This document shows positions 21,009 to 54,295 of a DNA stretch of 64,000 nucleotides, one piece after another. Position numbers and translations under genes: made by a program. The DNA comes from an uncultured Campylobacter sp. (GTDB taxonomy: Bacteria > Campylobacterota > Campylobacteria > Campylobacterales > Campylobacteraceae), in the NCBI GenBank assembly GCA_963529625.1, contig CAURZM010000007.1, forward strand, positions 25,715-89,714, in the 5' to 3' direction. Position 1 is the first letter of the stretch; each line of letters opens with the position of its first letter. The notes under the pieces were generated by a model that did no database searches, was not told where the DNA came from, and worked only from the letters and a program-made list of their open reading frames with translations.

Positions 21009-21977
21009 TTAAAATTTAAACTTTCTAAATTCTATCTTTTCATTAAAGATTGACATCGTGCGAGCTAGATTGCTTATATCTTTTTGCATCGTCTGCATAA
21101 AATAATCTCTCAGCTGCAGATATTCCTCTTTATTTGCCATCAAGATATTTAGTATCTCGACCTCAGCGTTTTCCTTATAAAGCACGAGCTGATCATGGAG
21201 ACCGAAAAAGCCGAGGCTACCGTTGCGTAGATGCATAATAGCCTTTGCTCCGAAAATTCCTGATGCGGCTAAAACAAAAATACACAATATATCAGTTATG
21301 CTTTCGCCGATTGTCATATCGTATGCATCGGCGGCAAAAATTAATAAAATCCAAAGAAGTAGTGCTATTTTTATAAACCAATTTATCCTTTGCCGCATAC
21401 TGTGTCTGCAATCAAAGCTAATTATCATCGCACCTATACTATTTAATTCGAAAATTTTATGGATTTTGTTTTTATAATAATACAGAATTTTATCATTTTT
21501 AAACTCAAAATACATGCCGTCCTTATCTCTAATTACGGTCAACAATGAAACCAATATAGATGGAAGCATTCGAAAAGTCTTAAGACTAACTGGATTTACT
21601 ATGGTGGCAAAAGTCAAAAATATAATGAAGCCTATCAGTAGCGCCGGAAATTGATAAATCATAAATTCGTAATAAGTATGATCTTTGATGATTATCGGCT
21701 CTTTGTCGTAGTCTCTAGTTTTGGAATTTTCCTGCAAGGCGCCGCTACCATCCGAAATAAAATTTTGCGGCTCTGCGTTGTTTACACAGGCGGGATTCTG
21801 AGCCGCTTCGGTTTCTGATTCGGTTTCTAAATTTAAAGCGTCAGGATCGGAATTTTTGGTTTCAGAATTCGGGGCTTTAAAATTTTCGCCGTTAAAATTT
21901 TGTTTCAAGCCCCGCTTCGGCTCTTGATGCCGCTTTTGTAGTAGCTTTTTTAATTCCTCAAGCCTGCTTTGATCCAT
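21009..21977 (-). CDS. RDYDK-family variable membrane protein, copy A (with MDQSRLEEL leader)
   Basis: ATG at 21977 after AGGTGG. Low-complexity leader, then RDYDKEPIIIKD, then TM helices. Paralogous to the genes at 31826 and 52779. Confidence 0.8.
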   Translation of the reverse strand: MDQSRLEELKKLLQKRHQEPKRGLKQNFNGENFKAPNSETKNSDPDALNLETESETEAAQNPACVNNAEPQNFISDGSGALQENSKTRDYDKEPIIIKDHTYYEFMIYQFPALLIGFIIFLTFATIVNPVSLKTFRMLPSILVSLLTVIRDKDGMYFEFKNDKILYYYKNKIHKIFELNSIGAMIISFDCRHSMRQRINWFIKIALLLWILLIFAADAYDMTIGESITDILCIFVLAASGIFGAKAIMHLRNGSLGFFGLHDQLVLYKENAEVEILNILMANKEEYLQLRDYFMQTMQKDISNLARTMSIFNEKIEFRKFKF

Positions 21978-21998
21978 TCTTGCCACCTATAAGGCGCT

Positions 21999-24845
21999 TT
22001 AACCTCGCTTATTTTTGCTCGCACTTTTCATCGCCGTTAGCTCCTGCGCCAAAAATTCCCCCGTATAGCTACTCGTCTTTTTAAAATCTTTCGCGAGCTT
22101 TTCTGGGGTGCCGCAAGCGACGATCTGTCCGCCGCCTTCGCCGCCTTCGGGCCCCATGTCGATGATGTAATCGCAGTTTTTAATGACGTCCAGATTGTGC
22201 TCGATCACAAAGACGGAATTTCCCAGATCGACCAAATGATGTAACACCGCCACCAAGCGATCTACGTCTGCAAAATGTAGCCCCGTCGTGGGCTCGTCCA
22301 GGATATATAGCGTGTTGCCCGTATCGGTGCGGCTTAGCTCCTTGGCGAGCTTGACGCGCTGTGCCTCGCCGCCGCTAAGCGTCGTGGCGGGCTGGCCTAG
22401 CGAAACGTAGCCAAGGCCGACATCCGCGAGCGTCTTTAGCTTTTGATAAATTTTAGGCACGGCTTTGAAAAACTCGAGCGCCTCGTCGATGCTCATCGCC
22501 AAAACGTCGGCTATGCTTTTGTTTTTGTATAAAATTTCAAGCGTCTGCGCGTTGTATCTCGTGCCGTGACACACGTCGCAAACGACGCTGATATCGGGCA
22601 GGAAGTGCATCTCGATCGTGATCTCGCCCTCGCCCGCGCATTTTTCGCAGCGCCCGCCCTTGACGTTGAAGCTGAAGCGGCCGATCTTGTATCCGCGCAG
22701 CTGCGCTTCCTTCGTCGCGGCAAAAAGCGCGCGGATCTCGTCCATCACCCCCGTGTAGGTCGCGGGATTGCTGCGCGGGGTGCGTCCGATCGGGGTTTGA
22801 TCCAGATAGATCACTTTATCCAGGCTCTCAAGCCCGGAAATTTTAGCGCCCTTTACCGCATGCACTTTCCTAGCGCGATTTAGCTCCTCAAGCGCCGTCG
22901 GCAGGATGGTTTGCAACACCAGCGAGCTCTTGCCGCTGCCGCTAACGCCCGTGATGCCGACTAGATTTCGTAGCGGAAATTTTGCGCAAAGGCCGTGGAT
23001 GTTATTGATATTTACGTTTTTGATACTTAGCCAAAGCTCCTGCTTGCGGTGCTTTTGGTAATTTATCTCCTTTTGGTTGTTCAGATACAGCGCGGTTTGC
23101 GTATTGCTTTTAAGCAAGTGCGCGACGTCTCCTGCGAATACGACCTCGCCGCCTAGATTGCCCGCCCCCGGACCGATATCTACGACGAAGTCCGCCGCCT
23201 CGATCGTCTTTTTATCGTGCTCGACGACGATTACGGAATTTCCTTTTTCTTGCAAGCTTCGCAGCGTCTTGATAAGCTTTTGCGTATCGCGCTCGTGAAG
23301 CCCAATGCTAGGCTCATCAAGCACGTACATCACGCCGCTAAGACCAGAGCCGATCTGGCTTGCGATACGGATACGCTGCGCTTCGCCGCCGCTGATGGTG
23401 CGCGCATCTCGCCCCAGCGTGAGGTATCCAAGCCCCACGTCCTTTAAGAAAAACAGCCTCTCGTTGATCTCTTTTAGGATCGGCGCCGCGATCTGTGCGT
23501 CCTTTTCGCTTAAATTTGAAAACCGCTTTTCATCGCTGAAAAATTCCACGCAGTCTGCGATACTCATATTTATCACGTCTCCGATGCCCTTATTTGCGAC
23601 CTTTACGGCTAGGCTTTCTGGGCGCAGGCGCAGCCCGCCGCAGTCGGGGCAAATTTTTTCGCTCATATAATCGTCCAGATCGCTTTCGTTTTTGAGCAGA
23701 TCGTAGGCGTATTTGATCGCACCCTCAAATTTACGCACGAGCTTATGCTTTTTCCAGTAAAAATCGATCTCTTTGACGCTACCGTAGAGGATCAGCTTTT
23801 TTTGCTCCTCGCTTAAGTTTGCGTACGGGATTTTGACGTTTATGCCGTTTGCTTCGCAAAATCCGAGTAGAAATTTATAATAATAGCTCTTATTAAAGCC
23901 CGACATCACCTTGATCGCACCGCCCTCGATCGAGGCGTTTTCGTTGATGATCTTGCCCAGATCGAGGCTAAATTTTATCCCAAGCCCGTCGCAGCTCTCG
24001 CACGCGCCCTTTGGGGAGTTGAAACTAAACGCGAGCGGCTCGAGCGGCTTGAATGAAATTTTACAATCAAAGCACGCCATATGCTCGCTGTAGTGGATCA
24101 GGCTCTGCGCAAGCCCCAGCTCGGCGGCGTTTGCGATCTCCACCTCAAGCTCGCCGAAGCTAAGCTTGAGCGCCTTTTCGACGTCGCTTGCGATACGGAT
24201 GGAATTTTCCTCGTCGATGATCGTGCGGTCGATGATAACCTTGATCGAGTGCTTTTTCGTCTTGCTTAGCTCGATCTCCTCATCCAGCCGCACCAGTACG
24301 CCGTCGATCTGAGCGCGTACGTAGCCCTGCTCGCGCAAGCTTTGCAACATATCGGCGAAGCTACCCTTTTTCTCGCGCACCAATGGCGCTCCCAAGATCA
24401 CCTTTGCACCGCGCGGCAGCTTCATAATTTCGGCGATGATGTCGCTGGAGCTCATCTTTGAGATCGGTTTGCCGCATTTATGGCAGTGCTGCACCCCCAC
24501 GCGCGCATAAAGCAGCCTCAGATAGTCGTAAATTTCGGTGATCGTGCCCACTGTCGAGCGCGGGTTTTTCGACGTCGTTTTTTGATCGATCGCGATCGCA
24601 GGCGTCAGACCGTCGATCTTATCGACGTCGGGCTTGCCTATGCGGTCTAAAAACTGCCTCGCGTAGCTGCTTAGGCTCTCGACGTATCTGCGCTGCCCCT
24701 CAGCATATAGCGTATCAAACGCCAGCGTGCTCTTGCCGCTGCCGCTAAGACCGGTAAAAACGACGAGTTTATCCTTTGGAATTTGCAAATTTATATTTTT
24801 CAGATTGTGCTCGCGCGCGCCCGTGATGGTGATGAGATCGTTCAT
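21999..24845 (-). CDS. uvrA: Excinuclease ABC subunit A
   Basis: GLSGSGKS and GVSGSGKS Walker A motifs, two (L/I)SGGEAQR signatures and zinc fingers. Start MNDLITITG at 24845, with a minus-strand TATAAT at 24876-24881. Confidence 0.99.
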
Positions 24846-24920
24846 TTTCGCCCTTTTGTGCCAAATTAATCTTACATTATAGCTCAAATTGTTAAAATTG
24901 TGCTTTTGAAAGGGGCGGCG

Positions 24921-26129
24921 ATGATACTAATCTGTACGGCTTTGCGCTGCGAAGCCCAAGCGATAATCGAGAGTTTTAAACTTACTCGCTACGGCGATCT
25001 GTTCGCAGGCGAGCAGATGCTTCTATACATCTGTGGCATGAGGTTTGGGGCTAAATTTGAAGTGGGCGCTGCAGGCGGTATAGAATTTGAGCGCGGGCTT
25101 AGCGCAAACACAGAGTTTGCGAGCGGCGCAGAAATAGAATTTCAGAGCGAGCCCGGCGCAGAATTTATTCGCCGTGCCGATACAGACGCGGAATTCGGGT
25201 GCGAGCTTCGTAAGGATCGGCGCGGTGCGGACGCGAAATTTAAGCACCGTTCGGATGCGGACGCGCTCTGCAGCGGCGATGTAGAGACCGACTTCGCGCA
25301 AAATGCGACCAAAAATTTTGAAATTTCAGATTTTGGCTCCGCGCGAAATTCAGAGCGTTTTGGTGAAATTTTACTTTCGCGGCGCGTGGACTTTGCGCTA
25401 AACATAGGCGTCTGCGGCTGCGCGGATAAAGGCGTGCAAATCGGCGAGGCGTTTTACTTTGACGGCACGGCGACGCAGGAATTTTGCGGCGAGGACGGAT
25501 TGGAATTTTATAACTCGCAGGCGATGGGGCGCGGCGCGCGGGCTCCGAAATTTCAAAACGTTTGCGAGCGTGAATTTTGCGGTGCGAGTTTAGACGGCGG
25601 GCTGCGGGCAAATTTAATCTGCGTAAGCGAGCCTAAAATTTTAAACGTAGCGGAGCGGACCCGTGGGGCAAATGTCGCAGCGATTGAAGCGTGCGGCAAG
25701 ACAAGCTCACAAGCCCTAACGCAAGGGACTAACGGCGCGGCAGATACAAAAAATTTCACGCGCGACGCAGTGCAAGCCGCAACACAAAGCGCGACGCAGG
25801 TCGAGGCGCAAAATTTAGCGAGCGCAAAACCCTCACAAATCGCGGTAGGCGGGCACAGCGTCGCGACGAATACCGCAGCACGAGCAATACAAAATACGCT
25901 GTGCACGGTAAAAGACGCTACCTGCGGGCGCGCAAATCGCGGCATCAGGCTTTACGATATGGAGAGCGCGCTTTTTGTGAACGCTTGCGAGCGTGCGGGC
26001 GTGCCGTGGGCGATGATGAAGATCGTAAGCGATCATTTGGGCGGCGAGCGGCTTTGCAAAAGCTTCGTCTATGAGCTCGTAAAGGCGCGCCTGTCGCAAA
26101 TCCGCGCCGCGGTAAAGAGTAAAATTTAA
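24921..26129 (+). CDS. Nucleoside phosphorylase/MTA-SAH nucleosidase-fold protein with large low-complexity insertions
   Basis: PNP_UDP_1-type motifs in order (ICTALRCEAQAII, ALNIGVCG, LYDMESALF, KIVSDHL), separated by long insertions. Confidence 0.72.
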   Translation: MILICTALRCEAQAIIESFKLTRYGDLFAGEQMLLYICGMRFGAKFEVGAAGGIEFERGLSANTEFASGAEIEFQSEPGAEFIRRADTDAEFGCELRKDRRGADAKFKHRSDADALCSGDVETDFAQNATKNFEISDFGSARNSERFGEILLSRRVDFALNIGVCGCADKGVQIGEAFYFDGTATQEFCGEDGLEFYNSQAMGRGARAPKFQNVCEREFCGASLDGGLRANLICVSEPKILNVAERTRGANVAAIEACGKTSSQALTQGTNGAADTKNFTRDAVQAATQSATQVEAQNLASAKPSQIAVGGHSVATNTAARAIQNTLCTVKDATCGRANRGIRLYDMESALFVNACERAGVPWAMMKIVSDHLGGERLCKSFVYELVKARLSQIRAAVKSKI

Positions 26130-26233
26130 CTACTAGAGCGTATGCAAAAAACCGAGCCGAGAGATGAAATTTTAGCTTCATATGCCGAATACGTCGTGGA
26201 ATTAGAAAGTATTGCATAGTCACAGGAGAAACG

Positions 26234-26707
26234 ATGAAAATAAAAGGCTCTTATCTATGTTTCGCTCTCTTGGCGTGCGCGTGCGTCGCGGCCTGCGCGT
26301 ATGCCGTGGCGGATATGTTCGCGGATCCGCCTTTGTTGGTCTTTTTAGCTCTTTTGCTAGTATTTTTCTGTATCGGGCTATGGTTAAAAGATGCCCTAAT
26401 AGGCGTGCGCTACCTAATTTATTGCGTCTGCGTGCAGCTACTTTTTGCAGCAGCCATATTCGCCGCTCATAAATTCCCCGCCATGGCGCAGTTTGTGCGC
26501 AGTGCCGAGATAGGCGTCGGCGGCGTGCCGCTAGGTATCGCTCTGCTCGTGCTACCCGCGTTTTTCTGCGCCCTGCCGTATTACTACCGAACGGGCGTCA
26601 AAAAAATTCCGCAAAAGCTCATACTCGGCGGAATTTTGATCCTAAACGTCGCTATTACGCTAGCTTACGCCTTCTATTTCGAACGACTATTCTGCGGCGC
26701 GATCTGA
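26234..26707 (+). CDS. Hypothetical membrane protein (about 5 TM helices)
   Basis: AGGAG RBS; highly hydrophobic 157-aa ORF. Confidence 0.7.
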   Translation: MKIKGSYLCFALLACACVAACAYAVADMFADPPLLVFLALLLVFFCIGLWLKDALIGVRYLIYCVCVQLLFAAAIFAAHKFPAMAQFVRSAEIGVGGVPLGIALLVLPAFFCALPYYYRTGVKKIPQKLILGGILILNVAITLAYAFYFERLFCGAI

Positions 26708-26780
26708 AATTTCAACGATTTTCAGTGACGGCGCGCGAAATTTAAGTATAATTTGCAAAATTTAAACGAAGCGGAGCAAG

Positions 26781-28055
26781 ATGACGGAGGCGAAAAAAGA
26801 GCCAGATGCGCAGTTTGGCGTGAATCTAGGCGAGCGATCAAGCGCGTTTTTGGGCGCGCTATTTGATAAATTTCACTTTTCATTTCAGCAACGAAAGCAG
26901 CTTGCGGAGTTTGCGAGCGATTTTGAGGCGTGGGATGAGACCCCCGTTTATGAGCTGCTTGCGGACGGGCAGTGCGGGTTAAATTTTAATAAAGCCAAAT
27001 TTAATAAAGTAGGAAAAGTCCCAAACGGCGAGCAAATTTTTAATTTCGTGCGCGAAGCCTGGCTTGAGCTTAAGTCGCGCCCACACTCATACGCGAGCTT
27101 CAAAAGCGATTACGCGCCGAAAAAATTTGAAATTTCCTCCTTTCGCGCAGAGCGCATCGCTTTGGGCCGCTGTCCGGTGGCGAGTGAAAACACCCGCTGC
27201 TGCAATCTGCTGACGCTTGATGCCGTTAATTCGTGCGGCTTTGACTGCTCCTATTGCGCGATCGGCTCCTTTTACAAGCAGGGGAAAATCGGCTTTGACG
27301 AGAATTTTGCGGCAAATTTGGCGCGGCTGCGGCTCGATCCCGCGCGCAGCTACCACATCGGCACGGGTCAGAGCTCCGACTCGCTCATGTGGGGCGATCG
27401 CTTCGGCATTTTAAGCGCGCTATGCGATTTTGCGGCGCGGCATCAAAACGTGATTTTGGAGCTTAAAAGCAAGTCGAACAATATTAAGTTTTTCCTGCAG
27501 CACGAGATCCCGCGCAACCTAATCGTCACCTTTTCGCTAAATACGCCCGCGATCATAGCGAACGAGGAGCATCTAAGCGCGAGCCTGGATGCGCGGCTGG
27601 CGGCAGCGGAGGCGCTCGCGGCGCGCGGCATTTTGGTGGGTTTTCACCTCCACCCGATGGTTTGGTACGAGGGGTGGCGGAGTGATTACGGCGCGCTTTT
27701 TGAACGGCTGCTACGCTGCTTCGATCCAAGCAGCGTCGCGATGGTCTCGCTCGGCACGCTTACCTTCATCAAACCCGTCGTAAAAAAGCTGCGCTCGCGC
27801 GGGCTTAGGAGTAAAATTCTGCAGATGCCCCTTGCGGACGCGAACGGCAAGCTGTCCTATCCGCTGCAGATCAAACGCGAGCTTTTTAAATTTGCCGCAG
27901 GCGCGCTTTCGCCGTGGCGCGAGCGGGTGTTTTTCTACCTCTGCATGGAGGACGCGAGCCTGTGGCGCGAGGTTTTGGGGCACGAGTACGAAAGCAACGA
28001 CGCATTTGAGGAGGCGATGAAGGCGGCGTATTTTGCAAAGATACGGCAGTGCTAG
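26781..28055 (+). CDS. Spore photoproduct lyase-like radical SAM protein
   Basis: CGFDCSYC (CxxxCxxC), IGTGQSSDSL, LELKSKS, FSLN, VGFHLHP and YLCME motifs. TATAAT at 26747-26752 and a GGAG RBS. Confidence 0.85.
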   Translation: MTEAKKEPDAQFGVNLGERSSAFLGALFDKFHFSFQQRKQLAEFASDFEAWDETPVYELLADGQCGLNFNKAKFNKVGKVPNGEQIFNFVREAWLELKSRPHSYASFKSDYAPKKFEISSFRAERIALGRCPVASENTRCCNLLTLDAVNSCGFDCSYCAIGSFYKQGKIGFDENFAANLARLRLDPARSYHIGTGQSSDSLMWGDRFGILSALCDFAARHQNVILELKSKSNNIKFFLQHEIPRNLIVTFSLNTPAIIANEEHLSASLDARLAAAEALAARGILVGFHLHPMVWYEGWRSDYGALFERLLRCFDPSSVAMVSLGTLTFIKPVVKKLRSRGLRSKILQMPLADANGKLSYPLQIKRELFKFAAGALSPWRERVFFYLCMEDASLWREVLGHEYESNDAFEEAMKAAYFAKIRQC

Positions 28056-28419
28056 ACACGCTGTTTACCGCAGACGTCGCGGTCTGTGCCGGCTCGTATG
28101 CGACGTCAAAGACATGGCGCGAAATTTAGCGGCGAGCGAGTGGTTAAAATTTAGCGGTGCGCCGAGTTTTATAAAATTAAATTTTATAAATCGTGCGGGG
28201 CGGGCACAGAGAGCGGCGATGAAATTTTACAAAGCGGCGGCACAGCAAAACGCCCGCGGGCTAAATTTAAAATTTTACCCAGCGCAGGTCGCGGCGCGGA
28301 TTGTCCAATCGCGCAAATTTAGCGGCAAATACAGCGGGTAATAAATTTAGCGCAGCGAAATTTGCATAGCGCGCTAAGCTTAACGCGCCGAAGCGGCATG
28401 AAAATTTAAAGGAGAAAAG

Positions 28420-29088
28420 ATGAAAGCATTGATCACGGGCGCAAGCGGCGGTATCGGCAGCGCGGTTGCGGAGCTTTTGCGACAAAACGGCTATGAAATT
28501 TTAACGCTAAGCTCGCGCTTTGAGGATACGGACGCGCTAGCGAAGGAGTGCCGCGCGCTGGCTGCGGCGTGTGAGATTGACGCACTGATTTTGTGCGCGG
28601 GTACGGCGAAATTTGCGCCGCTTGAGTCGATGAGCGAGGGCGAAATTTTAAAAATTTTAAACGTAAATCTTGCCGCAAACATCATCATCGCGCGCACGCT
28701 TTTGCCGAATTTAAAGCGCAACCGCGCCCATATCATCGGCATTAGCTCGATCGAGGCGCTGCGGGCGAGCCGCTTTAGCGCGGTTTATAGCGCGAGCAAG
28801 GCGGGGCTGCGGGCGTTTCTGCTCTGTCTTTTCGAGGAGGCGCGCAAGCAGATTAGAGTAAGCTGCATCAACCCGGGCATCACTAAAACGCCGTTTTACG
28901 AGGATTTGAACTTCGAGCCCGCAGATGATGAAGCAAGCTTCGTGGACGCTGAGGAGATCGCAAATTTTACGCTGCAAATTTTACGCACGAAGTCCAACGT
29001 AAGCGAGTTTACGATCCGCCCGCAGATCGTAAATCTGCGGAAAAAATCAAAATTTAATCGCGAAGGAGGCGAGCTTGAAAATCGGTAA
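28420..29088 (+). CDS. Short-chain dehydrogenase/reductase
   Basis: TGASGGIG, ISS, YSASK and INPG motifs; AGGAG RBS. Confidence 0.93.
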   Translation: MKALITGASGGIGSAVAELLRQNGYEILTLSSRFEDTDALAKECRALAAACEIDALILCAGTAKFAPLESMSEGEILKILNVNLAANIIIARTLLPNLKRNRAHIIGISSIEALRASRFSAVYSASKAGLRAFLLCLFEEARKQIRVSCINPGITKTPFYEDLNFEPADDEASFVDAEEIANFTLQILRTKSNVSEFTIRPQIVNLRKKSKFNREGGELENR

Positions 29089-29581
29089 AAGTCATGTTTT
29101 TGTGCTAGCCGTGGCGCTTCTTATTATTTATGCCGTGTTTGTAAGCGGTAGCGGCGGGTATTGTAGCGCGAGAGAATTTTTTTCAGGCAGGCATGATGAA
29201 GAAGATGATGCCTGCATCGCCAAGCTGGTAAAGCGAGCGGACGCGGGTAATATATATGCGGCAAATCGGCTAAGATATCCGCACGAGGCGTATATCAAGC
29301 GCACATGCAAAAAGGAAGTGGAAAGCTTGGGTGAGCGCGAGAGATATTATTTTGAGCTCTACATCCAAAATCGCTGCGAAGCTTGGGGCTTTGAAACGCC
29401 CAAATCAAAGGGCGGCGAAGCAAATACGACGAGCGGCGGCGGTAATTTAGCGCGAGGCGATATGAACGCGACTGACGGCGAGGGAAATTTAACGCGCGAG
29501 AGTGCGAATATAATCCGCAATGAAATAGGCACAATCAAACGCGATATGAATTCTACGGGAGGATTAAATGTCGGGCGATAA
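29075..29581 (+). CDS. Membrane-anchored Cys-containing protein, tandem paralog 1
   Basis: TTG start with GGAGG RBS, N-terminal TM helix, and the core EEDDACIAKLVKRADAG...RLRYP...LGERERYYF. Confidence 0.8.
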   Translation: MKIGKSHVFVLAVALLIIYAVFVSGSGGYCSAREFFSGRHDEEDDACIAKLVKRADAGNIYAANRLRYPHEAYIKRTCKKEVESLGERERYYFELYIQNRCEAWGFETPKSKGGEANTTSGGGNLARGDMNATDGEGNLTRESANIIRNEIGTIKRDMNSTGGLNVGR

Positions 29582-30109
29582 AGCGAAATTGAAAGCTAGT
29601 AAAAGTCAAATTTTTTTGTTAATCGTAGGGGGGTTGTTATTCTGTGCGCCCTATATATAAAAATCAGCGGCTCGTGTTGCAATGTGAGAGAGGTATTTTT
29701 GGGCTATGGCGAAGAAGACGATGCCTGCATCGCTAAGTTAGTAAAGCAAGCGGATGCCGGCGATATCCTAGCGGCAAACAGACTAAGGTATCCGCATGAG
29801 GCGTATATTAAGCGAGTGTGCGAAAAAGGGGTGGAAAGCTTAGGCGAGCGCGAGAGATATTATTTCCAAGATTTTCGAGGAGATCGCTGTGAGAATTTTG
29901 GCTTTAAAACGCCCAAATCAAAGGGCGGCGAAGCAAATACGACGAGTGGTGGCGGTAATTTAACGCGAGGCGATACGAACGTAACGGACGGCGGAGTAAA
30001 TTTAATGCGCGCCGAGGCAAATAACGGCGAAGCCCGCACTACAGGTAGCAAGGCGGACAAAATGAAGCGCGAAGGAAATTCTACGGAAGAACAAAATGCT
30101 GGGCGATAA
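29568..30109 (+). pseudogene. Tandem paralog 2, frameshifted at or near the G6 tract at 29628-29633
   Basis: The 5' frame (ATG 29568 or TTG 29589; KASKSQIFLLIVGG) stops at 29660. The core domain lies in another frame (29684-30109), which is open upstream through VVILCALYIKISGSCCN. One extra base joins the two frames. Confidence 0.75.
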
Positions 30110-30197
30110 GATTAGCCTTGAAGGCGATATCGTAAATTTTATGTCGTTGGTCAAATCTATGAAAAAATGAGTTAAAATTTATTACTCAAGGAAAAAC

Positions 30198-30713
30198 ATG
30201 GTAAAAAAGAGATCTTTAAAAATAAAAGGAAGCATATCGATTGCCATAATCCTGCTTTGGGTTTATTTTTTGATTACGGCGCTGAGCGGTGATAGATACT
30301 GCGGCATATGGGATTATATCGCAAATAGTGAAGAGGATGACGCCTGCATCGCTAAGCTGATAAAGCGCGCAGACGCGGGTAGTGAATTGGCGCTCAATCG
30401 GCTTAGATATCCTAGCAAGGCGTATATCAAGCGCGTATGCGAAAGGGGAGTGGAAAACTTAGGTGAGCGGGAGAGATATTATTTTGAACGTTTAGGCGTA
30501 GGTCGTTGCGAAGCTTTAAATTTTAAAGATAACGAAGCAAATACGACAAGTAGCGGCGGTAATTTAGCGCGAGGCGATACAAACGCAACGAGCGGCGAGG
30601 GAAATTTAACGCGCGCCGAGGCAAATAACGGCGAAGCCCACACTACAGGTAGCAAGGCGGATACGACGAAGCGCGAAGGAAATTCTACGGAAGAGCAAAA
30701 TGCTAGGCGATGA
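30198..30713 (+). CDS. Membrane-anchored Cys-containing protein, tandem paralog 3
   Basis: AAGGA RBS and TM helix; same EEDDACIAKL...GERERYYF core and sequon-rich tail. Confidence 0.8.
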   Translation: MVKKRSLKIKGSISIAIILLWVYFLITALSGDRYCGIWDYIANSEEDDACIAKLIKRADAGSELALNRLRYPSKAYIKRVCERGVENLGERERYYFERLGVGRCEALNFKDNEANTTSSGGNLARGDTNATSGEGNLTRAEANNGEAHTTGSKADTTKREGNSTEEQNARR

Positions 30714-31725
30714 AAATTTAGAAAAATTTTTCTCAAAAATCGACGCGGCGGAGTTTGGAATTTCGGCAGGTTCAAAGCTTGCTTCAAAAAATCCCAAACT
30801 TGCAGAAAGCACTAGAGATGGGAGCGGCGACAAGCCCTTAAAATCACAAGGCGACGCGGAATTTCGCGGCGGACAGCCATATTCTAACGGCGCGCAGCAA
30901 GCTAAAATTTTAAAATTTAATACCGAGCCGCCGTTTGACGCCGAGCAAGCGCGTCTTGATACGGAGCAAGCATACTTAAAATTTAACGTCCGTCCATCGC
31001 AGGCAGGGCTAAGTGTCCATCCGCCGCAGGCACAGTTTGACGCCGAGCGAGCGCAGGCAAAGATCCAAAATTTCATGCGCGATCTGCTGCAAAACTATGT
31101 GCTTTGCGTAAGCGGCGCGGAATTCGCCTTCGCGGAGATCGAGGCGTATTTCACGGGCGCGGATCGAAACACCTACAAGCGCGCGTCGCGGGCGGGCGAG
31201 ATATTTTTTCACAATTTCGGCTTTGACATTTCGTTTCGCAGCGTCCCGCAAAGCGGCGGCGGGATTTTGGTGCGAAGCCTGCGCGTTCTAAGCGGTGCAG
31301 AGCTTTTGGCGGGAGGCTTACCGGTTTTGGCGGGCTGCTTACCCGGCTCGGCAGGCGGCTTGCACGGCTTGGCGGAGAGCGGTTCGTTTGGCTCTGCCGC
31401 CCCGCTCATACAAAACGGCGATTTTATCGCGGGTCCGCGCAAATGCATGGGTAAAATTTTAAATCTGCAAACGCAAAATTTAAACTTCTCTTTAAAGCGT
31501 ATGCCGCAAATAGCGCGTGCAGCGAGCTTTAGCAACCGAATCCGACGGGGTGAAATCGTAAATGAAACGAATCTGGACGCAAATACGCCAAGCGGCGCAG
31601 CGGGCGCGACGAAGCTTGCGAATGAGCCGCGCAGGCTTACCAGCGAGGAGTTTGAGGCATATCTGAGCGTGGGCTACACTGCCGCGAAAACATATAAAAA
31701 ATCACTGCAAAGATATGGGGGCTAA
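30700..31725 (+). CDS. Hypothetical protein, possibly distant AAG/MPG (3-methyladenine DNA glycosylase)-like, with low-complexity insertions
   Basis: FAEIEAYF..D, FFHNFGFDISF, GGILVRSL and IAGPRKC follow the order of the AAG motifs (ETEAY, AVLIRA, GPGKL). Recognised by eye only. Confidence 0.45.
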   Translation: MLGDENLEKFFSKIDAAEFGISAGSKLASKNPKLAESTRDGSGDKPLKSQGDAEFRGGQPYSNGAQQAKILKFNTEPPFDAEQARLDTEQAYLKFNVRPSQAGLSVHPPQAQFDAERAQAKIQNFMRDLLQNYVLCVSGAEFAFAEIEAYFTGADRNTYKRASRAGEIFFHNFGFDISFRSVPQSGGGILVRSLRVLSGAELLAGGLPVLAGCLPGSAGGLHGLAESGSFGSAAPLIQNGDFIAGPRKCMGKILNLQTQNLNFSLKRMPQIARAASFSNRIRRGEIVNETNLDANTPSGAAGATKLANEPRRLTSEEFEAYLSVGYTAAKTYKKSLQRYGG

Positions 31726-31752
31726 ATTTTGATCAAACGGCGCGCAGCGCAC

Positions 31753-31860
31753 GAGCGGTAAAATTTACTGAGCTTTAAGTAGTGGGGGTATAAAATGGCG
31801 CGTCCATCAAATTTAAAGGCGGCGAATGGATCAAAGCAGGCTTGAGGAATTAAGAAAGCT
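31753..31860 (+). repeat. Promoter plus 5' leader module, duplicated at about 52514-52621
   Basis: GAGCG.TAAAATTTACTGAGCTTTAAGT....TATAAAATGG.GCGTCCATCAAATTTAAAGGCG....ATGGATCAAAGCAGGCTTGAGGAATTAAGAAAGCT occurs at both loci and contains a TAAAAT -10-like box. Confidence 0.9.
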
Positions 31861-32902
31861 ACTACAAAAGCGGCATCAAGAGCCAAAGCAGAGCTCGGAA
31901 CAAAATTCTAACGATGAAAATTTTAAAGCCCCGAATTCTGAAACCAAAAATTTCAGAGTCTCAAATTTTGAAGTTTCGAATTCTGAATTCCTGAATTTTA
32001 AATCCCAGAATTCCAAAGTCTCAAATTATAAATTCTTGAATTATAAATCTTCAAATTTCGAAGTTTCAAATTCTGAAACCAAAAAATCCGATCCTAGCGC
32101 TTTAAATTTAAAAGCCGAAGCGGATCAGAATTCCGCCTGCGAAAACAGCGCAGAGCAGCAAAATTTTATCTTGGATGGCAGCGGCGCCTTATCGCAGAAT
32201 TCTAAAGCTAGGGATTACGATAACGGGCCGATAATAATCAAAAATTATGAAAGATTTTTTGTATATTCGTTTTTAGTCCTATTATTGCCGATCTCTACGC
32301 TACATGCATTTTTAATTATAGATTTTATAAATCATGAAGATATTGATATAGTTCAGTATTTCGCTATTTTATTCATTATTTTACTATCTACAGTTATAAT
32401 ATCCATATTTACCGTAATCCGCCCTAGACAAGAGATAAAATTCACAAACAATTATATAGAATTTATTAGCGACGACTTAGTTGAAAAACGCTGCAAAATT
32501 GACGAAAACGCTTTATCTTTAAATTTCTCTATCGGAATTTTGGCAAGTTTATATGAGATAGGAAAATCTGAAAAGATATTTTTGTACTTTATCGCTATTT
32601 TTATATGCGTAATATGGTGGGATATATTTTTTATAGCAGTATTTTTTACATATTTATTCGGATTTTTATTAAATTTAATACTTTATCTGTTTATAAATAG
32701 GAATTTAAAAGGGTTTAGGGCTCTGCCATTTATTAGGATCGCACGCCCCTCATATGGCAGATGGTTTAGGAACAAGCCCGTTTATCCAAGATATTATCTC
32801 GTTTACGTCTATAATAAAAAAATTTATGATGAAATTAAAGAATATTTTTTGCTGAAAAACGTAAATATAAATAACGTTAAGAAAGATTACTTGTTTATCT
32901 AA
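31826..32902 (+). CDS. RDYDK-family variable membrane protein, copy B (leader with pentapeptide expansion)
   Basis: MDQSRLEELRKLLQKRHQEPK leader, RDYDNGPIIIKNY anchor and TM helices; AT-rich 3' part. Confidence 0.82.
   Translation: MDQSRLEELRKLLQKRHQEPKQSSEQNSNDENFKAPNSETKNFRVSNFEVSNSEFLNFKSQNSKVSNYKFLNYKSSNFEVSNSETKKSDPSALNLKAEADQNSACENSAEQQNFILDGSGALSQNSKARDYDNGPIIIKNYERFFVYSFLVLLLPISTLHAFLIIDFINHEDIDIVQYFAILFIILLSTVIISIFTVIRPRQEIKFTNNYIEFISDDLVEKRCKIDENALSLNFSIGILASLYEIGKSEKIFLYFIAIFICVIWWDIFFIAVFFTYLFGFLLNLILYLFINRNLKGFRALPFIRIARPSYGRWFRNKPVYPRYYLVYVYNKKIYDEIKEYFLLKNVNINNVKKDYLFI
31934..32085 (+). repeat. In-frame 15-bp-period tandem repeat (135-bp expansion)
   Basis: AATTCTGAAACCAAAAA at 31934 and 32069 (135 bp = 9 x 15). 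Encodes SNFEV/SNSEF/LNFKS/QNSKV/SNYKF units and is absent from copy A. Confidence 0.85.
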
Positions 32903-33025
32903 TGAGGAGGATAAAATGACGAAGGAAGAGGTCGCGAAGAAAGAGTCAGACAACGCGTATAAAAGGTTTTCATCAAATTAAGTTATTATAAATTTAGATC
33001 TATTTTTTAAAAGGTGCTTGAAATA

Positions 33026-33770
33026 ATGGAAAATTATAATGAACAAAAAGCCAGAGACTACGACAAAGAGCCGATAATAGTAAAAAATTATGAGAGGCTG
33101 CTAATATCTACAATTACGTTTTTATATATGCCTATGATTTTGGGCGGATATATTCTAAGCATATGGGATTTAATTTTTTTCAAAACACCATATATCGATG
33201 ATGGAAATAGGCTCTAGCGTTATATTTGGAATTTTTATAGCGATAGTATTGAGACTTATTTATAGCTGCTGCGTAAGCAATAATAATCGAAAAATCTACT
33301 TTATGAATAATTCTATAGATTTCTATAACAATGGCGAGCCTGAGAGAAGGACGAACAATATTCATTTAAATGATGTGATAGGCAGACCATTTTGGGGATA
33401 TTGCAACGACGATAAAGTTCGTCGCCTCATTTATAATATTATTATAATTTTTTCTATTGCAGCCCTATCGTTTCTATCATCGCAAATTTTATTATTCTTC
33501 ATTTTTTCAATACTTTCTGCAATCTTTTTGAAAATATTTTTTCACTTTTTAATTGTAGGCAATTTTAAGAATTTTTCATTCTTTTCTGCAATCATAGTGG
33601 ATTATCCGTACTATGAGCAGGAAAATACTTATTATTTAAGCTCTATTTTATCGGCAAAAAATTATTTAGTTTGCGTATATGATACAGAAAGGCTAAACGA
33701 AATAAAAGAATGGTTTTTAGTTCGAAAAAATATCAATATAGATAAAATAGAAAAATATTATCTTAGCTAA
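33026..33770 (+). pseudogene. RDYDK-family copy C, frameshifted at or near the T7 tract at 33174-33180
   Basis: The 5' ORF (RDYDKEPIIVKNY) ends at 33217 and the 3' ORF at 33198-33770 is in another frame. Deleting one base restores WDLIFSKHHISMMEIG. Confidence 0.78.
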
Positions 33771-33781
33771 AGCGGGCGGTT

Positions 33782-34501
33782 ATGGATACAAGAAACAAAG
33801 AGATTGGGTTTAGAGATTACGACAAAAATCCGATAGTCGTAAAAAAGATGGACGATCTGTTTTGGCTGATAGCTCTTGGAATTTTGTTAATTTGTTCTTT
33901 GACCTATCATTTTAGCAGTGAGTATAAATTTAGGTTTTATATGAAAATATTGCTAGGTTATGGCACCGCATTTTTCTTTATATACGCAGCGAGCTTTATA
34001 AATAGCAAAAAAACGATAACCTTTATGAAGGACAAAATAGAATTTAAAAATAAAACAAAATGCGAAAAAGAGATGGCGTTAAAAAATATCTCCGTTTACA
34101 GATATGCTTATATGATTCCCAATTTTGCGCCCTTTGATGTGAAAATTAAATTTTCTGTTTTAGTTTTATTTATAATGATCGTCGTGGCATTATACAACTT
34201 TAAATTTTATATGTTTATTTTTATAATTATGGGCTTGTCGCTTATGCCTATTATTAAATTTCTCTACTATATTCTGTTTGAGAAAACCGTTAGGTTCTTG
34301 CTTTGTGATAAATTATTGATATGCAATGGCTCCGATTCCGAAGTATTTACGATCAATAATAAAAATGAGCTTGGCGAGCTGCAAAAATATTTCTTGGATA
34401 CGCTAAATATAGATATTACAGAGGGATATTTATTTTGGAAACCGCCTTATAATATTGCAAAAATAATAGTGAATAAAATGAACAAATTTATGAAATTCTA
34501 A
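33782..34501 (+). CDS. RDYDK-family variable membrane protein, copy D
   Basis: RDYDKNPIVVKK anchor, TM helices and ELQKYFL near the C-terminus; AT-rich. Confidence 0.8.
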   Translation: MDTRNKEIGFRDYDKNPIVVKKMDDLFWLIALGILLICSLTYHFSSEYKFRFYMKILLGYGTAFFFIYAASFINSKKTITFMKDKIEFKNKTKCEKEMALKNISVYRYAYMIPNFAPFDVKIKFSVLVLFIMIVVALYNFKFYMFIFIIMGLSLMPIIKFLYYILFEKTVRFLLCDKLLICNGSDSEVFTINNKNELGELQKYFLDTLNIDITEGYLFWKPPYNIAKIIVNKMNKFMKF

Positions 34502-34662
34502 AAACAAAAGATAAGGTTTAAAAAATATATAAACGATACATAATTAGCGCACCGCTGGATAAACAATTTAATTCGCAGAATATTGATCTTTAATGAAAAA
34601 TAGAATTTAGAAAATTTAAATTTTAACGTTCCGCTTGAAATTTTGCCTTTAAAATTTACGCG

Positions 34663-35055
34663 CTAATCTTCGCCGCTTTCATATACGCCGAGCTCTACGA
34701 GATTGCCGTCAGGATCGCGCAGATAGATACTTTGCATAGCGCCGCGCGTGCCGTTGCGAGGTACGACGCCAAGCTCTATTTGTGCCCCTTTGCTTTCCAG
34801 CTCCGTTTTGAGCTGCTGTGCGCTTTGATCTTCGCAGATGAGGCAAAAGTCCGCCGAGCCCGTGCTAGGACGCGCCGCAAACGGCGCAAACTCGCCCGCG
34901 CGGGTGTGAATATTGATCTTTGAGGAGCCGAAACGCAGGCTGTGTTTGTCGCCCTCGCAAACATACTCTAGCCCTAAAATTCTTTCATAAAATTCCACGC
35001 ATTTTTGCAAATCGTCCGTAACTAGGACGAAGTGATCGATCTTTGCGATTTTCAT
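34663..35055 (-). CDS. VOC/glyoxalase family protein
   Basis: KIDHFVL...FYERILG...SIYLRDPDGNLVEL. Start MKIAKIDH follows AGGAGG. Confidence 0.9.
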   Translation of the reverse strand: MKIAKIDHFVLVTDDLQKCVEFYERILGLEYVCEGDKHSLRFGSSKINIHTRAGEFAPFAARPSTGSADFCLICEDQSAQQLKTELESKGAQIELGVVPRNGTRGAMQSIYLRDPDGNLVELGVYESGED

Positions 35056-35288
35056 TTTGCCTCCTTGCACGCTCGCAAGTCGCAAAATTTTTACGCCTCG
35101 CGGTGCAATCTTGGAATTCTGCCGTGGAATTTTGCGACAAAATTCCAAATGCTCGTAGCGAGAAATCAAAATTTCGCAACGTAAATTTTAAAATTCTAAA
35201 ATTTTGCTTAAGCAAAATATGGTGCAGCAAAACCTAATTTTAGTAAAATTTGACCCGACGAAATTCCGTCTAGCTAGCGCCGCAAATT

Positions 35289-37374: not shown

Positions 37375-37444
37375 GAAGCTCCTTTGATCTTTTTTTGAAC
37401 TTTTATTATAATGCAAAAAAGATAAAATTCCGCAAAGGAAAGCC

Positions 37445-38053: not shown

Positions 38054-38274
38054 AATTTCAAAATTCTATAAAATTTAAAAGCTCGTTTCGGCTAAATTTG
38101 AAAGCATAAGCGGATTTTGCATTTTATCGTAGCGGAATTTTAAAGCTAAAGTGAAATTTCATCGTGCGAAACATAAAATCCGATAAATTTTAAAATTTTC
38201 AAAATTCTGTCGTAATTTAGCTTGCAAAATTTCACGAAAATTCCGTCCGTAAATTTCAAAATCCCATAAAATTT

Positions 38275-39483: not shown

Positions 39484-39645
39484 ATATATTCCTTTTAAAA
39501 AATAGAATTATAGCATAAAAATCGCGAATATATCGAGATTTTATAGATATATTTAATTAATGTATTTTAGTATATTATTTATGTAAAAGGAATTTACCGA
39601 GCTTTAATGGGCTTTGCATTAAAATTCTCTTTTCAAGGAGAGGCA

Positions 39646-40017
39646 ATGATTTACGAAGATGAGATGATTTATGTGGAGCGCGAGGAGCACGAAGTGCCGT
39701 GGGTAAAGGTCTTTACGAAGGCGAAATTTAAAGAGCTTAGCGACTGCGACGAGGCGACGCTGGCGCATCTGTGGCGCGCCGTACTTCAGTGCGAAAAGAG
39801 CCTGCGGGAGTTTTATGCGCCCGATAAGATCAACATCGCAAGCTTCGCCAACTACGTGCCGCGCGTGCATTTTCACGTCCAAGCGCGCTTTAAAAACGAC
39901 AGCTTTTTCCCGGAGTCCGTCTGGGGAAAAAAGATGCGCAACGGCAAGCTAAATCTGCCGGAATTTAGCGAATTTGCAGAAATTTTAGCGGCAAATTTAA
40001 AGATGGAATTCAGATGA
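39646..40017 (+). CDS. HIT family protein
   Basis: PDKINIASFANYVPRVHFHV histidine-triad-like motif; AAGGAG RBS before ATG 39646. Confidence 0.88.
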   Translation: MIYEDEMIYVEREEHEVPWVKVFTKAKFKELSDCDEATLAHLWRAVLQCEKSLREFYAPDKINIASFANYVPRVHFHVQARFKNDSFFPESVWGKKMRNGKLNLPEFSEFAEILAANLKMEFR

Positions 40018-40832
40018 TAGGCGCGCGATCCAAAAAATACCTAAGCCTTTTCGCGCTTGCTTGTTGCGGCGCCACCTTTGCATTTTATCTGCGCTTTAAA
40101 AGCGAGGAAAATGAGATAAAAATCAAGCAGCAGTTCGATTTTAGCGCGAGCTTGTTTGAAAAGATCGTGGACGAAGAGAAGCTAAACGCCTTTGCGATCT
40201 CGCTGATTTTGTCGCAGAACAGCGACGTGGTGCGCTGTTTCGAGAGCGGCAAACACGGCGAGTGCATGGACGTGACGAAAAAATACAAAGACATCTTAAG
40301 CGCGGTGCCCTTTTACACGGGCGTGAAGATACATTTTCACACGCAAAACATCAGAAGTCTGGCTAGAAGCTGGAGCGACGAATTTTACAACGACGATCTG
40401 AGCTCGTTTCGCCATTCGCTTTTGCAGATCCGCCAGAGCTTGCTTCCAAAAGCGCTTGTGGAGATGGGGCGGTGCGGGGTTTTCATGCGCGGAATTTCGC
40501 CGGTTTTTAGCGACGGTAAATTTATCGGAAGCGCCGAGATAATGCTCGATTTCGAGCACGTCATCGCGCAGATCAACCGTATGGGAAACGATATTTTTAT
40601 CCTCGTAGATAAGAGGTTCGAGACCGACTGCTTCTATGATAAAATAGGCGTTATCAAGGACTTTATCGTCGTAAACAGCGCGCCGGATTACGACGTTTTG
40701 TCGATTTTGGCGACGCTTGATTTTGGGGCGCAGAGCTTTATCAAAAAGGACGGGCATTATTTTTACGTGCGGGCATTTTCGGACGAAAACGGCACGAAGC
40801 TGGGCTATATAATTCTGCACCGCGAAGGCTAG
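40014..40832 (+). CDS. Stand-alone Cache (dCache_3-like) sensor-domain protein
   Basis: One N-terminal TM helix; IHFHT...SLARSW...DDLSSFR...EMGRCG...RGISPV...IGSAE motif series. No output domain. Confidence 0.75.
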   Translation: MIGARSKKYLSLFALACCGATFAFYLRFKSEENEIKIKQQFDFSASLFEKIVDEEKLNAFAISLILSQNSDVVRCFESGKHGECMDVTKKYKDILSAVPFYTGVKIHFHTQNIRSLARSWSDEFYNDDLSSFRHSLLQIRQSLLPKALVEMGRCGVFMRGISPVFSDGKFIGSAEIMLDFEHVIAQINRMGNDIFILVDKRFETDCFYDKIGVIKDFIVVNSAPDYDVLSILATLDFGAQSFIKKDGHYFYVRAFSDENGTKLGYIILHREG

Positions 40833-41001
40833 CGGACGAATGGGCCAATCGTAAGCCTCATCAAAAGTGAAAATAACAGAAATATGATCGAAAGGTGACG
40901 TGCAAAATTTCTTGAGAAAGGCTAGAAATTTTAGGTTTAAGTAAATTTTTATAGTGATAGTTTTATAATCCGCGCTAAGGGATAGCAAGAAAAGGACTGA
41001 T

Positions 41002-52004: not shown

Positions 52005-52586
52005 TTTGACTGACACGGACGCAAATTAAAATTCCGCGGAATTGGTTGGAATTTTACCTCGAAAATTCCATGACATAATAAAATTATAAAATGCGAAATT
52101 TAGTCAAAATTCCGCGGAAATTTCTTAAATTTGAAATATAGAATTTAATAAAAATTCTTTAAAGATTATATTTTAGATTTCTTATATATATTTTACACCT
52201 AGTAGTATCACACCGGTTGTTTCTACATCTAAAATTCCTGATGCGTATTTAGCGCAGCTCTGTGGAGCGCTAGAAAGTAACTTACGACAGGGTATCGAGC
52301 TATATAGCTACTTAATATAAGAAAGAGGTGATTTGCTAAGAGAGAAATTTACCATAAGACACGAGGGTTGCTTTAAAATTTAAAAAGTTGAGTATAAGGC
52401 GGATTTAAAAATAAGGGAATTTATACGCTTAATTAGAATTTTTTGGATTTATGGTAGATTTTACGTATAGTTTAAAATTTCTAGAGTCTTTGCCTTATTG
52501 TAGGACAGCGAATGAGCGATAAAATTTACTGAGCTTTAAGTGATGAGAATATAAAATGGTGCGTCCATCAAATTTAAAGGCGATAA

Positions 52587-52763
52587 ATGGATCAAAGCAG
52601 GCTTGAGGAATTAAGAAAGCTCCTAAATAATCAGCACAGCGATGCAAAGCAAAATCTAACAGAAGGTCTTTATCCCAAAAATTTTAACGCTTTCGACTTC
52701 AAAAATTTAAAATTAGAAGATGCGAGCTCTAAGACTTTAAATTCCGATGATACCGCTTTTTAA
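52587..52763 (+). CDS. Orphan MDQSRLEEL leader ORF (58 aa), in frame with the downstream copy E
   Basis: Translated by hand as MDQSRLEELRKLLNNQHSDAKQNL...DDTAF*. The TAA at 52761-52763 is in the same frame as 52767/52779. Confidence 0.6.
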   Translation: MDQSRLEELRKLLNNQHSDAKQNLTEGLYPKNFNAFDFKNLKLEDASSKTLNSDDTAF

Positions 52764-52778
52764 AAGGTGCTTGAAATA

Positions 52779-53513
52779 ATGGAAAATTATAATGAACAAA
52801 AAGCCAGAGACTACGACAAAAATCCGATAGTAATAAAAGACTATGCTTTTTACGACTATATGAAATATTCCACGATTGCTACGCTTATAGGATGCTTATT
52901 CTTCATCTCGGTCGTTACCGTAGTAAACCCCATTGAGCCCAAAAATTTTAGATTACTTCCTTTCGCTTTGGTAATGTTTTTTATCAGGCGAAAGCAACAA
53001 AAGGGCGTCTATTTCGTATTTAACGATTCGGATATCAAATATTACAAAGAAGATAAAGCTTATAAATCTTTGAAACTTGAACAAATCGGCGCCGTTGCGA
53101 TCAGTTTTGATCCGCGCTGGGACCGGCAGCAGAGGATAAGTATACCCGAAATGCTGTTTTTGTCGCTTTGGCCTTTGGGCGCATACGTTATGCGCGGAAT
53201 GCATGCGATGATCGCGCTAATTTCGATGATAGCAATTAGCCTATTCGGAGCGAGCATATTGATGCATCTTAAAAATGGCAGTTTCAGATGCTTAGGCATC
53301 TATGACCGGCTTGTGATATACGGCGAAACGGGCGATCTTAGAATTATAAATGTTTTGATTTATAGCGAAAAAGAGTATCTGGAATTAAAAGAGTATTTTA
53401 TGCGCAAAACGCATATAGATTTAGATACCGTCCCTCGCACCTTGTCGGTATTTAGCAAAAAGGTAAAATTTAGAAAATTTAAATTTAGAAAGAGATATCA
53501 TAAGGCGAATTAA
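52779..53513 (+). CDS. RDYDK-family variable membrane protein, copy E
   Basis: MENYNEQKARDYDKNPIVIKDY start. The body resembles copy A (TVVNP, HLKNGS, EYLELKEYFM, FRKFKF). Alternative GTG start at 52767. Confidence 0.82.
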   Translation: MENYNEQKARDYDKNPIVIKDYAFYDYMKYSTIATLIGCLFFISVVTVVNPIEPKNFRLLPFALVMFFIRRKQQKGVYFVFNDSDIKYYKEDKAYKSLKLEQIGAVAISFDPRWDRQQRISIPEMLFLSLWPLGAYVMRGMHAMIALISMIAISLFGASILMHLKNGSFRCLGIYDRLVIYGETGDLRIINVLIYSEKEYLELKEYFMRKTHIDLDTVPRTLSVFSKKVKFRKFKFRKRYHKAN

Positions 53514-53554
53514 AAAGTAAGGAAATAAGCTGATTTTATAAAAAGTACTGATAA

Positions 53555-54295
53555 ATGGAAAATTTTAATAAACAGCAAACAAGAGATTACGACAAAGATC
53601 CGATAATTCTTAAAAACTACGAATATCTATATCAAAAGCTATTAATGGTTTTCTCTCTTTTTATGGGCGGCGTATTTGCCATAATCGTAAATTTTGATTG
53701 GAAAGCCAGCGGCGCAGCGAATTATAGCGCCAATGACGGTATATGCATGATTTTGTTTCTATCATTTTTATCGCTATTCATTATATTGCCGGAGCTTATA
53801 GATTATAGAAAAGAGAGACCGACGATACGGCTTAAAAACAACCAAATAGAATTTTACGAAAAAGATAAAATCGCGTATGTCGAGCAATGTGAAAATTTAC
53901 AGCATAATATGGATTGGTCCTTTTTTATAGGAAATTTTAAAGGAAAAAGAGGATTGCTATATATGTTTATGGCGGTATTGCTATGCTTGGTTTTCATGAC
54001 GATTGATCTCGTGGTTGCTCGTTGGTTTTTGAGCTTTGCTTTGTTTCAGTTTGCGGGCAATATATTAGTAAAATTTATCTTTTGTCTTGTTTTGGGAAAG
54101 AGCGGTGATAGGAGATTTTCGCTTTTTCCTGCATTGAGAGTTGGCGAACCGCATTATGGACATATCGGCTTATTTGCTTGCTCTAGATATTATTTAATAC
54201 CGATATTTAAAAATTCGATATATTTTGAATTGAAAGAGTATTTCTTAGCTAGACACAATATAAATATCAACGATGTAGATAAAATTTATTTCTAG
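53555..54295 (+). CDS. RDYDK-family variable membrane protein, copy F
   Basis: RDYDKDPIILKNY anchor; C-terminus resembles copies B and C (RYYL...ELKEYFL...NINI..V.K.Y). Confidence 0.82.
   Translation: MENFNKQQTRDYDKDPIILKNYEYLYQKLLMVFSLFMGGVFAIIVNFDWKASGAANYSANDGICMILFLSFLSLFIILPELIDYRKERPTIRLKNNQIEFYEKDKIAYVEQCENLQHNMDWSFFIGNFKGKRGLLYMFMAVLLCLVFMTIDLVVARWFLSFALFQFAGNILVKFIFCLVLGKSGDRRFSLFPALRVGEPHYGHIGLFACSRYYLIPIFKNSIYFELKEYFLARHNININDVDKIYF

Follow-up and report, generated by a model that had tools for sequence, protein, structure and literature searches.

Dispersed RDYDK genes of Campylobacter as candidate orphan immunity genes of a mirror-image polymorphic toxin system

Introduction

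In polymorphic toxin systems such as contact-dependent inhibition (CDI), Rhs and MafB, a carrier protein with an exchangeable toxin domain is accompanied by an adjacent immunity gene and by arrays of spare cassettes, with a conserved junction at which recombination occurs (PMC3482391, PMC5472700; the sources cited for known systems were drawn on in part). The classical arrangement places the toxin at the C-terminus and the immunity gene downstream. The present study concerns a stretch of 64,000 nucleotides (hereafter the window) from the genome of an uncultured Campylobacter sp. (contig CAURZM010000007.1, positions 25,715 to 89,714), which carries six genes, A to F, sharing an RDYDK motif (the anchor). 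Where relatives of these genes adjoin toxin-like genes, the order of CDI, Rhs and MafB loci is reversed: the variable domain is N-terminal, the presumptive immunity gene and the spares lie upstream, and the anchor falls inside the immunity gene. A conserved carrier with an exchangeable domain, a covarying adjacent partner and spare cassettes (the last in G006, G292, G471 and G289; G000 is the genome of the window, other G numbers are compared genomes and L numbers compared loci) are all present, but the classical orientation is not. We consider it likely that the RDYDK genes are orphan immunity genes, acting in the inner membrane, from a polymorphic toxin system of mirror-image layout, with the toxin N-terminal and the immunity gene upstream. 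A preliminary description of this DNA had guessed at an array of polymorphic-toxin immunity genes, and the toxin-like RTX and type VI secretion system (T6SS) genes linked to the family in other genomes support that guess.

Neisseria FrpC/FrpD and Stenotrophomonas Smlt3024/Smlt3025 resemble the RDYDK loci in having an upstream partner, a variable RTX N-terminus and an Asp-Pro self-processing module (PMC5472700, PMC3034196, PMC6759196). The Stenotrophomonas RTX-like N-terminal domain is antibacterial and goes with an FrpD-like immunity protein, and the same authors hypothesise that FrpC and FrpD are likewise toxin and immunity protein (PMC6759196). FrpD and Smlt3025 are beta-rich and of lipoprotein type, whereas the RDYDK protein is predicted to be a split PH-like domain with four transmembrane (TM) helices, facing a helical, hydrophobic N-terminal domain (PMC5472700, PMC3034196, PMC6759196). 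The RDYDK-linked carriers therefore share FrpC-type RTX repeats and the Asp-Pro module, but the four-TM model does not match an FrpD-like beta-sheet lipoprotein.

WHIX effectors of the T6SS carry toxic domains at both ends with immunity genes on both sides, including upstream immunity to the N-terminal toxin (PMC12135965), and are in this respect like the vgrG loci of G403, G453 and G208 described below. Their N-terminal domains mostly target peptidoglycan (PMC12135965), whereas the RDYDK-linked domain looks membrane-active. A four-TM immunity protein acting against a colicin-like effector has also been reported (10.64898/2026.08.24.746647). The acquired interbacterial defence clusters of Bacteroidales (AID, and the recombinase-associated rAID) are likewise orphan immunity genes kept without toxins by mucosal commensals (10.1101/471110). 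They differ from the RDYDK genes, which are a single family in arrays of one to three genes at housekeeping sites, with no recombinase among the 59 open reading frames (ORFs) scanned in the window. Both share immunity genes without cognate toxin or exporter; the mobile element or recombinase is not shared, an integrase being found at producer loci only. In Xylella fastidiosa, RTX operons encode hypervariable N-termini that end at DPL(V/A)LDLD (PMC5935956). These operons are alike in their variable RTX N-termini, upstream tandem modules (N-terminal repeat plus unknown ORF) and low GC; they differ in that the modules are interpreted as a mobile element and the partner ORFs are classed as ORFans (PMC5935956). 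The sections of PMC5935956 examined propose no toxin-immunity role for the modules. The likeness is one of layout, and we claim no relationship.

RDYDK genes precede a hydrophobic N-terminal domain

The domain to which RDYDK genes are linked, here called the N-domain, spans ~170 aa and is hydrophobic. Its profile matches 22 of 401 genomes of the class (one match being a flagellar false positive), 10 of 142 genomes of a second genus and 40 of 78 of the genus of the window. An RDYDK gene lies directly upstream in 35 of the 35 distinct matches with at least 500 nt of upstream DNA, a count in which 12 seed domains had been chosen from such pairs and the others came from genome searches. Viewed from the other side, an N-domain start or stub follows 84 of 300 family ORFs compared to 0 of 1168 controls; at loci fetched without an N-domain query the figure is 41 of 240. 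The two partners also co-diverge, both across 15 pairs (Mantel test, Spearman 0.47, p 1e-4) and among seven paralogous pairs within G006 (r 0.87, p 6e-4).

Full RTX proteins headed by the N-domain and paired with an intact RDYDK gene, with lengths of 2551, 2786, 2906 and 3466 aa, were found in four genomes (G012, which has the longest, G017, G471 and G483). They match PF00353/PF06594 and contain what we take to be a self-processing module, recognised by its motifs rather than through a named profile; the Asp-Pro cleavage motif is D-P in G012 and G471. An HlyB-type ABC exporter gene adjoins the pair in G017 and G483, together with hlyD and an integrase gene in G017, and the RDYDK partners in these two genomes start with a homolog of the long leader described below. 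Both pairs lie in element-like regions (L279:1727-19966 in G017; L283 in G483) with an integrase, the RDYDK gene, the full RTX gene and a divergent hlyB (hlyD in G017). Arrays of partner plus truncated N-cassette occur in G006, G292 and G289, mixed with other heads including lipases, and RDYDK genes and stubs are stacked ahead of the full RTX gene in G471. In G012 the full 3466-aa RTX gene occupies the site at which G000 (contig C13) has a 242-aa remnant. The link between the RDYDK gene and the N-domain extends to two other families (G307, G289).

In five genomes of the second genus the N-domain heads T6SS effectors, again with RDYDK genes upstream. The gene preceding this set is VgrG by Pfam in G453 and a similar ORF of ~950-1075 aa in G222, G272 and G208; muramidase or Tlde1 domains form the C-terminal ends of the effectors in G403, G453 and G208. 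The Pfam-confirmed VgrG at L189:1128-4220, and the similar ORFs in the same position at L234:3539-6760 and L235:10531-13377, have N-terminal extensions that differ and a gene upstream, which suggests that VgrG proteins may carry N-terminal toxin heads as well.

In the mechanism that we favour, each RDYDK protein would neutralise one version of the N-domain, itself probably membrane-damaging and delivered either by RTX proteins (type I secretion with FrpC-type self-processing) or by T6SS effectors of other Campylobacterales. The N-domain has Gly/Ala-rich hydrophobic helices, with a peak hydropathy of 1.15-1.95 in 14 of 15 cases. The order at a producer locus would be spare immunity/N-domain cassettes, then the immunity gene, then the toxin gene, mirroring CDI, Rhs and Maf loci.

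The strict upstream position and the co-divergence would fit equally well if the RDYDK protein were a dedicated chaperone or anchor, holding the N-domain before export or retaining it afterwards, and no antidote; FrpD does bind the N-terminus of FrpC and has been read as an adhesin anchor (PMC5472700). We regard this as unlikely. Several paralogs are stacked ahead of a single effector, and intact copies under purifying selection persist in genomes with neither exporter nor carrier. Moreover, the same RTX carrier with self-processing module is found with hydrophobic, lipase or lysozyme heads, and lipase- or lysozyme-headed RTX genes in the same arrays have other upstream partners. One of these is the lysozyme inhibitor LprI, which occupies the equivalent position ahead of a lysozyme-headed RTX; in G307 an RDYDK/N-domain cassette is followed by precisely this pair. 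The alternation of heads, the presence of the N-domain on T6SS effectors with peptidoglycan-cleaving tails and the selection on orphans in non-producers also speak against the N-domain being a host-directed cytolysin or adhesin whose RDYDK partner only protects or assists the producer, the orphans being leftovers. Pore-forming cytotoxins exist among RTX proteins (PMC3034196) and the N-domain has hydrophobic helices, but we judge this alternative very unlikely.

Organisation of the RDYDK genes in the window

The preliminary description had reported six RDYDK genes at three loci. All six anchors were located, but C is a frameshifted pseudogene. The features are as follows.

21009..21977 (-): gene A, intact, 322 aa, with the long MDQSRLEEL leader; anchor at 21716 (-); between uvrA and recO
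31740..31825 (+): stretch upstream of B, common to the E locus (about 52500-52586); contains TATAAAAT
31826..32902 (+): gene B, intact, 358 aa, with a long low-complexity leader; anchor at 32210
32916..32981 (+): stub after B, 21 codons with a ribosome-binding site (RBS), similar to the opening residues of the RTX N-terminal domain
33004..33067 (+): 64 nt that recur unchanged at 52757-52820, covering spacer, short leader and anchor
33026..33770 (+): gene C, frameshifted pseudogene with a T-run at 33174-33180; anchor at 33053
33782..34501 (+): gene D, intact, 239 aa; anchor at 33812
41002-41823 (+): second partner, not RDYDK
41898-44297 (+): truncated 799-aa RTX-type N-terminal cassette following that partner
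52587..52763 (+): short MDQSRLEEL leader of the E locus, 58 aa ending at TAA, in the reading frame of E
52779..53513 (+): gene E, intact, 244 aa; anchor at 52806
53555..54295 (+): gene F, intact, 246 aa; anchor at 53582

The GC content of the RDYDK genes is 28-38%, against 46% for the window. The T-run in C has 7 T, where intact relatives have 6 T (5 of 6) or 5 T plus an extra C (1 of 6). As previously proposed, the body of A resembles E (40% identity) and that of B resembles F (30%) and intact C (28%); the identity between the 5′ ends of C and E is exactly 64 nt. A and B indeed have the long MDQSRLEEL leader in common, and an MDQSRLEEL leader, overlooked before, also precedes E, in frame and separated by one stop. 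In relatives this last leader is joined to body E or F; in G000 its end is overwritten by the B/C spacer. The long B leader (31826-32209, +) is a low-complexity Asn/Ser/Glu/Phe repeat, varying in length from about 83 to 138 aa across strains. The stretch ahead of B at 31740..31825, with TATAAAAT, is likely a promoter/RBS head shared by the B and E loci. A sigma-70 scan did not flag this head, the promoter/terminator scan as a whole performing at chance (20 found vs 16.7 expected). Directly upstream of the B array, a 341-aa ORF (30700-31725, +) has no match in Pfam, NCBIfam or PADLOC.

The stub after B scores 11.3 bits on a profile of N-domain starts, a score of at least 8 bits being reached by 0 of 1168 control ORF ends; it thus reads as the remnant of a toxin gene once paired with B. 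Elsewhere in G000, two RDYDK genes lie 21-27 nt ahead of truncated RTX-type genes. The pair at 41002-44297 is 38% (partner) and 55% (cassette) identical to a pair in the G292 array and, judged by this similarity, represents a second family of partner and N-domain, itself unnamed, within the array system; several relatives have no match at this site.

Cassettes are rearranged between strains

The rearrangements below are differences between strains, mostly in metagenome assemblies, and in the array comparison some contigs are represented twice, under different ids. Between the 30700 gene and the glyoxalase gene the array reads B-C-D, B-E, B-D, C-E, B alone or E alone, depending on the assembly, and the PAS-Sel1 site carries E-F or F alone. 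Pairings of leader and body differ between strains, a check that the preliminary description had called for: 75 database relatives of F carry a 66-aa leader (25), a long leader (about 30), F's own short leader (10), D's leader (1) or another type (2). The independent assortment of leaders claimed there did not hold, A and B being always long-leadered in the loci examined and short leaders moving with the upstream cassette. Since short leaders are the tail of the upstream cassette, the moving unit runs from anchor to anchor, and leaders are for the most part carried along with their place in the array. In one RDYDK gene (L008:7147-7968) the "leader" is the beginning of an RTX N-domain that runs in frame into the anchor; leaders can therefore arise from toxin stubs.

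Switch points fall in the ~30-nt anchor, whose DNA is itself polymorphic at several positions. L040, L054 and L066 join the uvrA-side leader directly to F-Sel1, as an inversion of the 32 kb separating the A and F anchors would do. In L034 the E locus is joined to the glyoxalase side. An independent run yielded contigs with jumps between anchors, B to C and C to D. These swaps, deletions and inversions support the earlier proposal that recombination at the anchor reshuffles the cassettes. Shufflons have invariant crossover sites and a linked site-specific recombinase. A shufflon or other site-specific inversion was rejected for these loci, given the polymorphic anchor and the window ORFs scanned, which include no recombinase. 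Because none of the 59 ORFs scanned belongs to an integrase or recombinase family, we infer ordinary homologous recombination. Acting within the anchor (plus leader), it would delete, swap and invert anchor-to-anchor cassettes, altering both the set of immunities that a strain holds and which one comes first behind the promoter.

Cassette swaps behind a common 5′ head also resemble variation loci, and antigenic variation had been offered as an alternative in the preliminary description. The bodies, however, are predicted polytopic inner-membrane proteins with no signal peptide, and selection within each body is purifying, not diversifying. Antigenic-variation or phage-receptor/defence cassettes with no relation to toxins would further leave the 35/35 linkage unexplained, and PADLOC gave no match. 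This is the explanation to which we give least weight.

RDYDK copies are kept in a genome lacking the export genes

G000 (99.95% complete) lacks VgrG, a full RTX protein and an exporter of the RTX type. It has no type I secretion (T1SS) membrane-fusion protein over the cut-off and nothing that matches HlyD or the C-terminal part of RTX proteins; RTX repeats gave one match. A membrane-fusion protein over the cut-off is likewise absent from G004 and G010 and present in G006 and G075. On the reading that we favour, G000 is a non-producer that keeps orphan copies at housekeeping sites. One G000 orphan (contig C3) shares 91.5% identity with the RDYDK partner of the RTX protein in G483, a genome of another genus.

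That C is frameshifted, that several copies elsewhere in G000 and its relatives are broken, and that the toxin stubs are clearly decayed would suit neutral relics of toxin islands, passively shuffled through a common repeat. Yet the bodies A to F have dN/dS values of 0.09-0.28, a range that overlaps that of the flanking genes (0.01-0.20), and 82 of 87 distinct copies remain intact while adjoining toxin genes are reduced to stubs. We rate relics as still less probable than a host-directed N-domain.

A number of observations weigh against the orphan-immunity interpretation. A, B, D, E and F reach only 23-39% identity with their nearest producer-linked partners (F: 39%, G471), and their cognate toxins were therefore not found; a stub follows only B among the six window genes. 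No N-domain or stub is detectable after 216 of 300 family ORFs or in 60 of 94 body clusters. Co-duplication of neighbours alone could produce the co-divergence of partner and domain. The N-domain has no Pfam, PDB-sequence or fold match (Foldseek E <= 0.001), its model is poor (predicted local distance difference test, pLDDT, 50), and its resemblance to colicins is an Atlas lead of 0.87 only. Two of the four full RTX proteins (G017, G483) have S-P instead of D-P at the cleavage motif. Finally, many of the rearranged loci come from metagenome-assembled genomes.

On balance we still favour orphan immunity genes, and lean, with less assurance, towards a broader picture: a mirror-image toxin war among oral and gut Campylobacterales, in which a new membrane-active N-domain (on self-processed RTX proteins or double-headed T6SS effectors) would be blocked by a new split-PH four-TM family, non-producers holding 10-25 orphans per genome, gained across genera and reordered behind shared promoters through a recombination site in the first strand. 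Among the unnamed gene families of these Campylobacter genomes this is one of the most expanded; if correct, the picture would assign it a function and provide a tractable toxin/immunity pair for the question of the role of FrpC-type RTX proteins, which, with their self-processing modules, are usually catalogued as host virulence factors (PMC3758288). It would also be a case of orphan-immunity hoarding against type I-secreted toxins, hoarding having so far been described mainly for the T6SS in Bacteroidales.

Predicted fold of the RDYDK protein

A model of F built from 124 sequences (pLDDT 88, pTM 0.84) agrees with the two-plus-two TM layout described earlier, placing helices at 23-52, 59-87, 131-150 and 152-180. 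Along the chain, a strand (17-20) is followed by two helices, a beta segment, a second pair of helices, more strands and a closing helix. Many PH domains align to this model (about 85-100 residues across 9-243, root-mean-square deviation 3-4.5, Z 3.7-5.2); Foldseek returned nothing at E <= 0.001, its matches lying at E > 0.2. The alignments are no more than suggestive of a PH-like domain into which two membrane hairpins are inserted; its first strand would be the anchor and its last helix the "Y.ELKEYF" tail. Such a domain would have the anchor and the tail as its two ends, which would explain why these alone are conserved in the RDYDK protein, the anchor being kept as a structural strand.

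Size and spread of the family

The family was thought to have six members; the profile gives 22 matches in G000, corresponding to about 17 genes or pseudogenes at about 12 sites. Of 78 genomes of the genus, 77 have matches, usually 10-25 per genome within the close clade; across the phylum, 60 of 401 sampled genomes match, with other families included and some matches weak. The family forms 368 clusters at 50% identity, and named database records that contain it are from Campylobacter. Plasmid records yielded none with gene F.

The earlier impression that no named family applies was upheld by searches of Pfam, NCBIfam, PADLOC and PDB sequences. A, B, D, E and F belong to no Pfam, NCBIfam or PADLOC family, B giving two sub-threshold Pfam matches; no Pfam family is common to more than three of 124 aligned members; and the PDB sequence search found no match for either the RDYDK family or the N-domain. 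Both families thus appear unnamed. No description of either was found in the literature, judged by titles, abstract openings and selected passages; the supplements of PMC9676060 (genes beside Campylobacter vgrG) may list them as hypothetical proteins. Two distant relatives in G000 (L001:4513-5202 and L003:5503-6252, on C1 and C3) have no RDYDK motif and a GC content of 49-53%, the genome average; they are perhaps old domesticated copies.

Other observations

A 518-aa ORF elsewhere in G000 (C19, about 25940-27500, +) combines the self-processing-module motif with a different N-terminal domain. Within the window, 29075-30713 (+) encodes three tandem paralogous small proteins, each with an N-terminal hydrophobic stretch and without a Pfam match, whose copy number differs in other runs (joint 29277-29804). 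A molybdopterin oxidoreductase gene of a polysulfide-reductase-type operon (47699-49963, -), adjoining 4Fe-4S and NrfD genes, is apparently split into ORFs of 84 and 609 aa. Near uvrA lies a spore-photoproduct-lyase-like radical SAM gene (26781-28055, +).

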